Source: Escherichia phage vB_EcoM_ECO78
Direction: 5' to 3' (one strand)
Sequence record: PP526941.1
Length of the DNA stretch: 64,000 nucleotides
Numbering within the stretch: position 1 is the first letter of the stretch; every line of letters begins with the position of its first letter. Both the position numbers and the translations under genes were made by a program. Of the stretch, positions 17,690 to 23,131 are shown in pieces. The notes under the pieces were generated by a model. That model was not told the DNA's origin. It worked only from the letters and a program-made list of their open reading frames with translations, and made no database searches.

Positions 17690-17697
17690 TATAAATA
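17690..17697 (+). promoter_or_regulatory. late promoter TATAAATA for gene 36
   Basis: Exact TATAAATA about 24 nt upstream of the gene 36 ATG. Confidence 0.55.
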
Positions 17698-18391: not shown

Positions 18392-21300
18392 ATGGCTACT
18401 TTAAAACAAATACAATTTAAAAGAAGCAAAACCGCAGGTGCACGTCCTGCTGCTTCAGTATTAGCCGAAGGTGAATTGGCTATAAACTTAAAAGATAGAA
18501 CACTTTTTACTAAAGATGATTCGGGAAATATCATTGATCTAGGTATTGCTAAAGGCGGTCAAATTGATGGAAATGTGACTATCAATGGTCTTTTAAGATT
18601 AAATGGGGATTATACACAAACTGGTGGAATGACCGTAAATGGACCTATTGGTTCTACTGAAGGCGTATCCGCCTTAGTTTTTAGATCTATGCGAGGGTCA
18701 TTTTACGCAAGAGCAACAAATGATACTTCCAATGCCCATCTTTGGTTTGAAAATACAAATGGATCAGAGAGAGGGGTTTTATATTCAAAACCACAGTCTG
18801 AAAATGAAGGCGTAATTACAATGCGTGTTCGTCAAGGAACCGCTGCGGGAGCTCAAAATTCAGAATTTCATTTCATTTCTACTGATGGCGGTATCTTCCA
18901 GGCACGCAAATTAACTGCTTTAACTTCTATTAGTACACCAACTATTAGTGTTAATTTAATTAATCATGATTCTAAAGCCTTTGGACAATACGATTCGCAA
19001 TCATTAGTTCAGTATGTTTATCCTGGAACTGGTGAAACTAACGGAGTAAACTATCTTCGTAAAGTTCGAGCTAAATCAGGTGGCACTATGTGGCATGAGC
19101 TTTGTACTGCTCAGACTGGCCAGGCTGATGAAATGTCTTGGTGGACAGGTAATACTCCATCATCTAAACAATATGGCATTCGTAATGACGGACGAATGGC
19201 AGGCCGTAATAGCCTTGCATTAGGTACATTCACTACGGGTTTCCCGTCTAGTGATTATGGTAACGTCGGTGTAATGGGCGATAAGTATCTTGTTCTCGGT
19301 GACACTGTAACCGGTCTGAAATATATTAAGCAAGGTGTTTATGATTTAGTTGGTGGAGGTTATTCCGTTGCATCTGTTACTCCAGATAGTTTCCGTAGTA
19401 CTCGTAAAGGTATATTTGGTCGCTCAGAAGACCAAGGTGCTACATGGAACATGCCTGGAAACAACGCCGCGTTTTTATCGGTTCAAACACAAGCTGATGA
19501 AAACACTGCTGGAGACGGCCAGACACATATTGGCTATAACTCAGGCGGTAAAATGAACCACTATTTCCGTGGTAAAGGCAAAACTAATATTAATACTCAA
19601 GAAGGCATGGAAGTTAACCCGGGTATTCTTAAACTAGTAACCGGTGCTAACAGTATTAGCTTTAACGCTGCAACAGGTAATATTGATTCTACATTAGCTT
19701 TTCGTCTTAATAAAGGTATAATTATTGATGGACCTGATAATCAGGGATTCCAATTTAATGCTCCGACGGCTGTAGATGGTACTAGAAGCATATACTGGAA
19801 TAGTGGCACTCGCGCAGGTCAAAACAAAAACCCTGTTACAGTTAAAGTGTGGGGTAATTCATTTAACGCATCTGGTGATCGTAGTCGTGAAACCGTTTTT
19901 GAAGTAGCTGATGGGCAAGGTTACCATTTTTATTCTCAACGCGTAGCTCCTGCACCTGGTTCGACTGTCGGGCCTATTCAACTCCGAGTTAATGGTGGTT
20001 TATTAACTTCTGGTGGTATTACTGCTTCCGGTTCTATTGTTACTGAATCAAGTTTAGTTGCAAATAATGGATTATCTGTAAATGGTCAGGCTAAATTTGG
20101 CGGAACAGCAAACGCACTAAGAATTTGGAACGCTGAATATGGTGCTATTTTCCGTCGTTCGGAAAGTAACTTTTATATTATTCCAACCAATCAAAACGAA
20201 GGCGAAAGCGGAGACATTCACAGCTCTTTGAGACCTGTGAGAATAGGATTAAACGATGGCATGGTTGGGTTAGGAAGAGATTCTTTTATAGTAGATCAAA
20301 ATAATGCTTTAACTACTATAAACAGTAACTCTCGCATTAATGCCAACTTTAGAATGCAATTAGGACAAAATGCTTATATAGATATTGAGGCTTCTGATGG
20401 AATTCGCCCAACAGGTTGTGGTTCCTTTGCATCTCAGAATGACGTAAACGTCAGAGCTCCAATTTATATGAATATAGAGCGTACTGCTACTTCTGAATAT
20501 ATTCCTATTGTTAAACAGCGTTATGTGCAAGGTGATAGCACTTATTCTATTGGGACATTAATTAATCAAGGAGATTTCCGTGTTCATTACCGCCAAGGCA
20601 CCGGTACGGGTGGCACTGATTTGAGTTGGGAATTCCGTCGCACAGGCGATTTCCGCGCGGCAGGTAAAATTATTGCTGGTGCTGCTACTCTTGGCACTGA
20701 TGGTAATATCACCGGTGGTTCTGGTAACTTTGCTAACCTGAATACCACATTAAATCGTAAGGTAAATTCCGGATTTGTAACATACGGTGCAACGGCCGGA
20801 TGGTACAAATTCGCTACAGTAACGATGCCACAATCTACTTCTACTGTTTCATTTACTATAACTGGTGGTAAAGGATTTAATACCGGACTGTTTACACAAT
20901 GTGCTATAACAGAAATTGTTCTTCGTACTGGTAATGACCGCCCAGCAGGTTTAAACGCCGTGATGTATACCAGAACAGCGGCAGGTCTTACTGATATTGC
21001 TGTAGTTAATACCTCAGGAAATACATATGATGTCTATGTTGAAGCTGGCACTTATGCCAACCAATTAGCTTATACCTGGCATACAGTTGATAATGCTACC
21101 GTAGAAGTTATTGGCGCTTTTGGTCCTACTCAAGACCCGGTAGATTCTTTGCCGGCTAATTATGTTAAAGGCCAAGTAGCTAACATGCTTAACAACCTGG
21201 TAGACACAGGTAAAGTAAAACGTTATGTAGCAGATTCTGAAATTGCTATTAATAACCAAACGGGTCTTCGTATTACGAGTAATTATGATAGATCAGGTTC

Positions 21301-22315
21301 TAATTCCGTTTTGTTTCGAAATGACGGTGGAAGCTTCTATATTTTACTGACTGACAAAAACTCTTCAGACGGCGATAATAAAGCAACTGAAGGTGATTGG
21401 AATGGAAAACGACCATTTTCAATTGATATGACTGCTGGTACTGTTCGTCTTGGCGAAAATACTTCTTTTAGTAAAGATGTTACTATTGATGGAAACATTA
21501 ATTCACGAGTTAAAGTTGTCGGACAGTGGAATGTTAGCTTTTCTGATATTTCAGATGTGACTCGTGACCGTTCTGCATTTTTAGTGAATACGGGTGGCAT
21601 TTCCAATACAAGTCAATCTTATTACCCGCTATTTTCTGGATACAGTTTTTTAACTGACGCGGGTTATCGCCAATCGTTTGAATTTGGATGGTTAGGTGTT
21701 TCTGGTACTTGGCGTCAAGGTATTATTCGCATGCGTGGTGACAACGCATCGGGGCAACAGGCTCGTTGGACTTTTGATATGGATGGAACATTTTATGCTC
21801 CTAAATTGGCTTGCGGTTCTACCGGTGCCCTCGGTATTAACACATCCAACGGATGGGGTGGTAACTCAATTGCAATTGGTGATAGCGATACTGGTTTTAG
21901 ACAAGTAGGCGATGGGCTTTTAGAAGCGTGGGCGAACAACGTTAAAGTTGTTAGATTCACTTCGAGCGAAGTTTATTCCGAGAAAAACGTCAATGCTCCT
22001 AACGTTTATATTCGTTCTGATGTTCGCTTGAAATCTAATTTTAAACCTATTAAAAATGCGCTCGAAAGGGTTGAGCAACTTGATGGTTTAATCTATGACA
22101 AAGCTGAATATATAGGCGGTGAACCTGTTCAAACTGAAGCGGGTATTATAGCTCAAACGTTACAAGACGTTTTACCAGAAGCTGTCCGTGAATCAGAAGA
22201 TAGCAAGGGTAATAAAATACTCACTGTTTCTTCTCAAGCCCAGATTGCTCTTCTGGTTGAAGCTGTGAAAACACTTTCTGCTCGTGTAAAAGAACTTGAA
22301 TCTAAACTTATGTAA
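18392..22315 (+). CDS. 37: long tail fibre distal subunit gp37, long T2/T6-type with C-terminal intramolecular chaperone-like domain
   Basis: 1307 aa, [39 protein letters not shown]...; C-terminal about 110 aa end in a coiled-coil ([16 protein letters not shown]). Confidence 0.9.
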
Positions 22316-22316
22316 A

Positions 22317-22334
22317 AGAGGGCTTCGGCCCTCT
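22317..22334 (+). other. UUCG-tetraloop hairpin between genes 37 and 38
   Basis: AGAGGGC-UUCG-GCCCUCU right after the gene 37 stop and before the gene 38 SD; no clean U-run. Confidence 0.4.
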
Positions 22335-22345
22335 AAGGATTTTTA

Positions 22346-23131
22346 ATGGCAATTGTAGGTGTTCCTGGCTGGATTGGTGAATCTGCTGTGAATGAAACTG
22401 GACAACGTTGGATGGATGCTGCGATGAAAGCTGTTCGTGTTTCAGTTCCCGGCTGGATGAGCTCAATGGCTGGACAATCTAAAGAAATTCATTATAGCAT
22501 TGGTGCTAGCAATTCTTACAATAAAGACACTCTTATTAACTGGATGAAAGCACAGGGGTCTACTCCGGTAGTAATTACTATTACAGGAAATATTGTTTCT
22601 TCATCGACAGGTCAACCATGCTTAGATTTTCCTAGCTCATTAACTAATGCATACGTGACACTTAATATCAATTCAGGCGTGCATGTTTGGGGTCGCGGCG
22701 GGAATGGTGGAAATAACTCTGCTGGCGGAGCAGGAGGAACTGCAATAAATAACGGAATTGGAACTAGATTACGTATTAATAACAATGGTGTTATCGCAGG
22801 CGGCGGTGGCGGCGGTGGCGGCGGATACTACTCTCCTTTTTCACAAATGAGATTGACTTTTGGTGGAGGAGGCGGTCGTCCATTTGGTGCGGCTGGCGGG
22901 TCTGCTAATATGGAACAGGGTGCTACTGCTGGTACTATTTCTGCGCCCGGTAAAGGGTCTGTCAACGGTATCTATAATGGCGGGAATGGTGGTGATGCCG
23001 GTGCCGCAGGAGGTAAATGTAATATTCGCGGTCAAGGATCAGAATATAATGGCGGCGCTGCTGGTAAAGCTGTTACTGGTAATGCTCCAACTTGGACTAA
23101 AGTTGGTACAATATATGGTGCAAGAGTATAA
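22346..23131 (+). CDS. 38: glycine-rich receptor-recognising adhesin gp38 (T2/T6 type)
   Basis: 261 aa; conserved N-terminus MAIVGVPGWIGESAVNETGQRWMDAAMKAV, then glycine-rich blocks including G9 separated by short variable segments. Confidence 0.85.
   Translation: MAIVGVPGWIGESAVNETGQRWMDAAMKAVRVSVPGWMSSMAGQSKEIHYSIGASNSYNKDTLINWMKAQGSTPVVITITGNIVSSSTGQPCLDFPSSLTNAYVTLNINSGVHVWGRGGNGGNNSAGGAGGTAINNGIGTRLRINNNGVIAGGGGGGGGGYYSPFSQMRLTFGGGGGRPFGAAGGSANMEQGATAGTISAPGKGSVNGIYNGGNGGDAGAAGGKCNIRGQGSEYNGGAAGKAVTGNAPTWTKVGTIYGARV
22799..22825 (+). repeat. (GGY)9 simple-sequence tract encoding poly-glycine in gp38
   Basis: ggcggcggtggcggcggtggcggcgga. Confidence 0.8.

Follow-up and report, generated by a model that had tools for sequence, protein, structure and literature searches.

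Which protein is encoded by the glycine-rich open reading frame behind gene 37 of Escherichia phage vB_EcoM_ECO78, which receptor would it recognize, and does the run of glycine codons within it vary in length? The window, i.e., the whole stretch of DNA that was analysed, comprises 64,000 nucleotides (sequence record PP526941.1). The reading frame lies at 22346..23131 on the plus strand, starts with ATG, and encodes 261 amino acids followed by a stop codon. It is a real gene and encodes a T2/T6-type gp38 adhesin, in which 60 of the 261 residues are glycine. The preliminary description, made from the letters of the window alone, had proposed such an adhesin with a layout of glycine blocks and variable segments that sets receptor specificity, and this proposal is borne out by Pfam, known structures, alignments, and a predicted model.

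The deduced protein matches Pfam GP38 (PF05268) over residues 47-261 with 242.3 bits (cut-off 25, E = 6.9e-72) and Gp38_N (PF21721) over residues 1-42 with 64.8 bits (cut-off 25, E = 7.2e-18). Sequence matches are also found to the S16 gp38 crystal structure (6f45_D, E = 1.9e-48) and to the PP01 gp38 structure (9v85, E = 1.4e-31). The AlphaFold2 model, calculated with an input of 59 sequences, has a mean pLDDT of 92.9 and a pTM of 0.86. When the model was compared with the PDB by Foldseek, 6f45_D (TM 0.79/0.83) and 9v85_C (TM 0.74/0.86) were matched, and no other match was below E = 7. Superposition of the predicted model on these two chains suggests a fold in three parts, the attachment domain, the beta-helix, and the polyglycine-II sandwich. 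All profile and structure matches of the protein belong to the adhesin family. In this family, the N-terminal domain binds gp37 and is followed by a small beta-helix; the polyglycine-II sandwich is built from five glycine-rich motifs, and the receptor-binding loops are four variable segments that project from it (Trojet 2011, PMC3157838; Lutz 2025, PMC12032242). The layout is also ascribed to Dunne 2018 in the summary given in PMC12892980. The gp38 proteins of S16 (6f45) and PP01 (9v85) share the three-part architecture and the fold with the window protein at 41-43% identity, and their glycine motifs align with those found here. However, both proteins bind OmpC, and their variable loops are unlike those of the window protein in sequence and length. 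S16 gp38 has eight glycines in the second glycine-rich motif, as compared with nine in the window protein.

Gene 38 follows gene 37 and precedes the holin gene t (gene order gp36-gp37-gp38-t), and the 24 kb around it show 94-95% identity to several Tequatrovirus genomes. The neighbouring fibre gene is as follows.

18392..22315, plus strand: gene 37, distal half-fibre subunit carrying gp38, 1307 aa (Pfam, structure match)

gp37 contains Peptidase_S74 of Pfam, an intramolecular-chaperone domain, at residues 1209-1266, and also Gp34_trimer. Its last 150 residues match the tip of S16 gp37 (6f45_A, E = 5.5e-10). Gene 38 thus lies directly 3' of a gp37 that has a C-terminal chaperone domain, and not a receptor-binding tip of the T4 type; the chaperone domain is presumably removed from gp37.

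Product names in databases point in another direction. In several records, those of T6, teqhal, RB18, and Solly among them, homologues bear the label 'distal long tail fiber assembly catalyst' or else 'tail assembly protein', as would befit a tail-fibre assembly chaperone like T4 gp38, which is not an adhesin of the virion. However, the window protein falls in the adhesin families PF05268 and PF21721, the crystal structure that it matches has gp38 on the gp37 tip, T2-type gp38 is unrelated to T4 gp38 (Trojet 2011, PMC3157838), and swaps of gp38 switch the receptor (2026 preprint). The T4-type chaperone reading taken from the GenBank product names was discarded on the family and structure evidence, and we see practically no chance that it is correct. 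The 'assembly catalyst' names in many GenBank records, that of T6 included, are the T4 gp38 chaperone label carried over by annotation.

The modules of the adhesin were delimited by aligning it to 10 phage alleles and to 58 cluster representatives, in the scheme of Trojet 2011 (PMC3157838). Five glycine-rich motifs (GRM1-5) separate four variable segments (HVS1-4) in the C-terminal half.

22346..22471, plus strand: N-terminal module, T2-like (Pfam Gp38_N, residues 1-42)
22472..22690, plus strand: beta-helix body, residues 43-115 (strands in the model)
22691..22711, plus strand: GRM1, GRGGNGG, residues 116-122 (7/7 identical to T6)
22712..22798, plus strand: HVS1, residues 123-151 (Trojet scheme and alignment)
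22799..22825, plus strand: GRM2, nine-glycine run, residues 152-160 (codon reading, conservation, and model)
22826..22861, plus strand: HVS2, YYSPFSQMRLTF, residues 161-172 (identity, model strands)
22862..22900, plus strand: GRM3, GGGGGRPFGAAGG, residues 173-185 (12/13 identical to T6)
22901..22978, plus strand: HVS3, residues 186-211 (identity to relatives)
22979..23014, plus strand: GRM4, GGNGGDAGAAGG, residues 212-223 (conservation)
23015..23050, plus strand: HVS4, KCNIRGQGSEYN, residues 224-235 (identity to relatives)
23051..23131, plus strand: GRM5 (GGAAGKAVTG, residues 236-245), C-terminal strands (residues 246-261), and stop codon (conservation, model)

Invariant glycines are present in all five motifs in the alignments with phage alleles and cluster representatives. 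Among 59 diverse gp38 proteins, which are 52-97% identical to the window protein, the invariant residues are G116, R117, G118, and G119 in GRM1; G153, G154, G155, and G157 in GRM2; G176, G177, P179, and G181 in GRM3; G213, G215, G216, and G222 in GRM4; and G237, G240, A242, G245, P248, W250, G254, and G258 in GRM5 and the C-terminus. G152, G156, and G158 in GRM2 are conserved in at least 90% of these proteins. GRM1 and GRM4 form a direct repeat with a spacing of 282 nt. HVS2 is predicted to be a beta-hairpin loop at the distal tip, with strands at residues 160-165 and 168-173 in the model, and C-terminal strands are predicted at residues 243-257. The four glycine blocks quoted in the preliminary description are all there (residues 116-131, 152-160, 172-186, and 210-223), while a fifth block (residues 236-245) had been missed. 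The short segments between the blocks had been regarded as variable, but the first of them, HVS1, is fairly conserved.

The identities of the individual modules justify the double label 'T2/T6'. The N-terminal 42 residues are shared with T2 at 40 positions and with Bas43 at all 42, and residues 43-115 are shared with T2 at 48 of the 73 positions. T6 gp38 has the same length, the same five glycine motifs, and the same nine-glycine run as the window protein and a nearly identical loop set, but it has diverged in the N-terminal module (28/42) and in the beta-helix (26/73), where the window protein is T2-like. Contrarily to these modules, HVS2, HVS3, and HVS4 are T6-like (11/12, 20/26, and 10/12, respectively), and T2 retains only 0/12, 6/26, and 3/12 of them. 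HVS1 is 29/29 identical in NR1, IME339, and Bas39 and 19/29 in T6. Identity is likewise complete in HVS2 with IME339, NR1, and Krischvirus GEC-3S (12/12), in HVS3 with Bas39, IME339, and NR1 (26/26), and in HVS4 with Bas39, IME339, NR1, and GEC-3S (12/12). Since the N-terminus is T2-like and the loops are T6-like, a T2-like docking module is joined to a T6-like specificity module in this protein. This is a known kind of combination.

The nearest relatives should be noted, since they bear on both the novelty of the allele and its receptor. The phage collection contains 31 records with a gp38 of 95-99% protein identity, the best of which is NR1 (LR990704; 98.1% protein and 95.7% DNA identity). 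The gp38 proteins of NR1 and IME339 (MH051915) have 261 residues and are encoded at the same genomic position as in the window. NR1 differs by five substitutions (K28R, I48V, H49Y, M67I, and A259S), none of which is in the variable loops, so that NR1 and the window protein agree fully in the four variable segments. The IME339 gene has 93.0% DNA identity, and most of the differences of IME339 and NR1 from the window are synonymous. Bas39 FriedrichMiescher (MZ501066) and Shigella phage JK38 (MK962755) have gp38 proteins of 96.9% identity (91.7-92.2% at the DNA level) with the nine-glycine run; they share HVS1, HVS3, and HVS4 completely with the window protein, and HVS2 at 11 of 12 positions. Both proteins differ by R169K in HVS2, by A259S, and by six substitutions within residues 1-112. 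Over residues 113-261, the identity is 149/149 with IME339, 148/149 with NR1, 147/149 with Bas39 and JK38, 118/149 with T6, and 84/155 with T2.

These values leave little of the novel allele implied by the preliminary description, the receptor-binding half being that of IME339 and, except for two residues, that of the Tsx-dependent phages Bas39 and JK38. The search by alignment for unique variable segments, which it had proposed, returned four segments identical to those of NR1, i.e., the T6 set. The exact 261-residue protein was absent from a collection of 15 billion protein sequences in an exact look-up, and in this strict sense there is no identical allele on record. The allele is nevertheless largely one already characterised, and judged by the refuting condition that it had set itself, the preliminary description is for the most part not upheld. 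It is ordinary because its receptor-binding half is identical to that of IME339 and almost identical to those of two Tsx phages, and it belongs to a class with an experimentally determined receptor; this type of gp38 gene is already known and well characterised. The comparisons made here demonstrate the gene identity, the fold, the motif layout, and the near-identity to alleles with known receptors.

The set of HVS1-4 is, judging from loop identity, that of the Tsx-recognising gp38 proteins, nearly all of which share one HVS set (Trojet 2011, PMC3157838). Because the window protein carries the variable-loop set of T6, Tsx is the predicted receptor. The same prediction follows from Bas39 and JK38, which are Tsx-dependent and whose sole loop difference is a lysine in place of R169, where T6 also has arginine. 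Tsx is the primary receptor of Bas39 (BASEL supplementary table), and Tsx/Kdo was assigned to JK38 by RB-TnSeq (2026 preprint). For IME339, the sole allele with an identical binding domain, no receptor assignment was found. Taken together, the receptor of the window gp38 is most probably the Tsx nucleoside channel. Its rating as the likeliest host-range determinant in the window stands in a narrower form, as the most plausible determinant of the primary receptor in this part of the window. The value of the result is practical only: Tsx can be predicted with confidence as the primary receptor of this phage, which is useful for the design of phage cocktails and for anticipating resistance through loss of tsx. 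The gene adds nothing to the understanding of gp38, as the family, the fold, the modular layout, the link between loops and receptor, and the mosaic exchange have all been published.

We place high confidence in the explanation as a whole, namely that the reading frame represents gene 38 in a T2/T6-like Tequatrovirus and encodes a Tsx-type adhesin with a glycine tract of fixed length. A monomeric gp38 would cap the gp37 trimer of the long tail fibre at its tip. By analogy with the S16 gp37-gp38 structure and according to Trojet 2011, residues 1-42 are likely to dock on gp37, and residues 43-115 would form the small beta-helix. From the five glycine-rich motifs, the nine-glycine run among them, a rigid 'PGII sandwich' of packed polyglycine-II helices is predicted to form. 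This core would hold HVS1-4 at the distal end to bind the extracellular loops of an outer-membrane protein, which for a T6-type loop set would be the Tsx nucleoside channel.

Small sequence differences retarget gp38 adhesins, and for this reason a receptor other than Tsx, or one in addition to it, has to be considered, possibly OmpA or an extended range as in PST. RB51/RB68 change between OmpF and OmpW through a single HVS3 substitution, and Q206L switches RB68 from OmpF to OmpW (2026 preprint). A few residues, three in HVS2 and HVS3, separate PST from T6, and PST gains OmpA in addition (Trojet 2011, PMC3157838). The window protein differs from T6 at one, six, and two positions in HVS2, HVS3, and HVS4, respectively, and has a unique patch in its beta-helix region. 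Since single loop substitutions can switch the receptor, near-identity is strong evidence for Tsx but not proof. The N-terminal sequence of gp38 can also influence specificity, as suggested by Trojet 2011 (PMC3157838), so that the five differences from NR1, with those in the N-terminal and beta-helix parts, can weigh against full certainty. On the other hand, HVS1-4 match those of Bas39 and JK38 except for R169K, a position at which T6 has arginine, and all three are Tsx phages. Tsx is used even by Bas43, in which the loops have diverged further (HVS2 6/12, HVS4 3/12). A receptor that is not Tsx, or not only Tsx, is therefore unlikely in our estimation.

The remaining part of the explanation concerns the length of the glycine tract. 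GRM2 had been described as a (GGC/GGT)9 repeat at 22799..22825. The tract is in place and in frame as codons 152-160, and it reads GGC GGC GGT GGC GGC GGT GGC GGC GGA, i.e., eight GGY codons and one GGA. Tandem Repeats Finder reports a 9-bp unit, GGCGGCGGT, in 2.9 copies with 100% match. The 64-kb window contains a single stretch of nine GGN triplets in succession, and 100 dinucleotide-preserving shuffles yielded none, by which a chance origin of the tract was ruled out. The run consists of nine glycines in all 10 aligned T6-type alleles including that of the window, with codons differing among the phages, and nine glycines are kept in both T6 and Krischvirus GEC-3S (dS = 1.47 over residues 113-261). 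The 29 closest records, with at least 95% identity, each align over exactly 783 nt, and thus show no net change in length. Among 120 cluster representatives, the run length is nine in 60, eight in 24, and seven in 17; it is fixed within loop classes, as observed in 8/8 representatives of the class of the window and in 32/33 of the largest class. An IMG/VR scan for related loci gave only four distant loci of 57-77% identity, which were of no use for the tract analysis.

In the model, residues 151-160 have a mean pLDDT of 98, and the run is predicted to be an ordered part of the core. A flexible linker was excluded because of this value and the invariance of the glycines. T6 derivatives with GRM2, GRM3, or GRM4 deleted gave no viable phage (Trojet 2011, PMC3157838). 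Comparisons within the class over residues 113-261 give dN/dS ratios of 0.00-0.06, and this holds even for GEC-3S at dS = 1.47. Strong purifying selection acts on the 'hypervariable' half within one receptor class, on its sequence as well as on the length of the tract. The GGY tract codes for a structural element of fixed length and is not a variable spacer.

Contrary to this fixed length, the tract could be thought of as a contingency locus, in which slippage in GGCGGCGGT changes the number of glycines in GRM2 and thereby shifts loop geometry and host range. The perfect 9-bp tandem repeat in the window would suit such a role, and four cluster representatives have runs shortened relative to their own classes: P0009 (nine to six), P0022 (seven to four), P0028 (nine to four), and P0120 (seven to four). 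The DNA of P0009 (L016:301-1071, Logan contig SRR21291524) has a clean in-frame loss of 9 bp within the tract, from nine to six glycines, and is otherwise 98.4% identical to the full-tract contigs L017, L018, and L019 (301-1080). As judged from the assembled sequence, this loss appears to be a slippage-type contraction. However, the length is fixed in each loop class and is unchanged in the 29 close records and across dS = 1.47. In relatives, synonymous changes break up the repeat, which indicates that its repetitive character is not preserved. Residues G152-G158 show no or hardly any variation among the 59 diverse proteins, and removal of GRM2 is lethal in T6. The short-run variants are confined to clusters of one or two sequences, P0009 and P0022 each being on single contigs. 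Slippage-type 9-bp contractions do occur in public assemblies, but only as rare variants. The perfect repeat may favour gain or loss of three glycines, but it is very improbable that variants such as L016 are a functional host-range switch, and we attach equally little weight to the contingency locus as a whole. If true, it would mean a host-range switch driven by slippage within an otherwise rigid gp38 fold. The claim of a slippage-prone tract of variable length is thus mostly unsupported, with nine glycines in 10/10 T6-type alleles and in 8/8 class representatives, though the rare contractions bear out a small part of it.

Deletions of another kind are seen in the same set. Eleven of the 120 gp38 cluster representatives (P0011, P0041, P0066, P0089, P0090, P0100, P0103, P0108, P0110, P0112, and P0115) have clean internal deletions, the ends of which lie in two different glycine-rich motifs. 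GRM1 is joined to GRM4 in P0041, for example, and GRM2 to GRM3 in P0011. Some of these representatives are on contigs longer than 200 kb or in nine-member clusters. Such motif-to-motif deletions are hard to square with the report that T6 is not viable when motifs or loops are deleted.

The preliminary description had also expected recombination among gp38 alleles, and in general terms this is correct, as the gene 37-38 locus is a mosaic. Within gene 37, the nearest relative is IME339 at approximately 18770-20100, Bas43 at 20720-21770 (93-99%), and T-01 and Phaginator at 21770-22070 (95%), while NR1 is nearest in gene 38. Even within gene 38, the sites differing from NR1 are unevenly distributed, with 24 in 22387-22594, none in 22595-22800, and 10 beyond. 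This is fine-scale exchange as published for the tail-fibre genes of T-even phages and is nothing new. Only the last approximately 100 nt of gene 37 are conserved in all sampled T2-type relatives. At 22474-22594, gene 38 has a patch within its beta-helix part that is unlike that of any sampled member of the allele class; no donor was identified for it, the best database match being 93.6-93.8%. At the protein level, the patch matches the Krischvirus GEC-3S type (KEIHYSIG...INWMKAQ). GEC-3S (L011:4286-5065) belongs to another genus, and its gp38 has 89.8% protein identity at near synonymous saturation (dS ~1.4). Its gp38 gene is located away from gene 37, among small hypothetical genes; displacement of gene 38 in Krischvirus has been noted in the 2026 preprint.

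Two transcription signals are related to the locus.

17690..17697, plus strand: T4-type late-promoter consensus TATAAATA (pattern match, upstream of gene 36)
22317..22334, plus strand: hairpin AGAGGGC-TTCG-GCCCTCT (terminator-like hit)

Since the count of TATAAATA in the window is not above chance, only its location, 24 nt upstream of the start of gene 36, speaks for a function; from this position, it probably drives transcription of genes 36-37-38. No late promoter was found immediately upstream of gene 38, the nearest TATAAATA being that at 17690, before gene 36. The hairpin, which has a 7-bp GC-rich stem and a TTCG loop, is situated between the gp37 stop codon and the ribosome-binding site of gp38, and the equivalent hairpin is annotated as a terminator in NR1. 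As gene 38 is without a late promoter of its own, the hairpin must either be read through by transcription or attenuate it.
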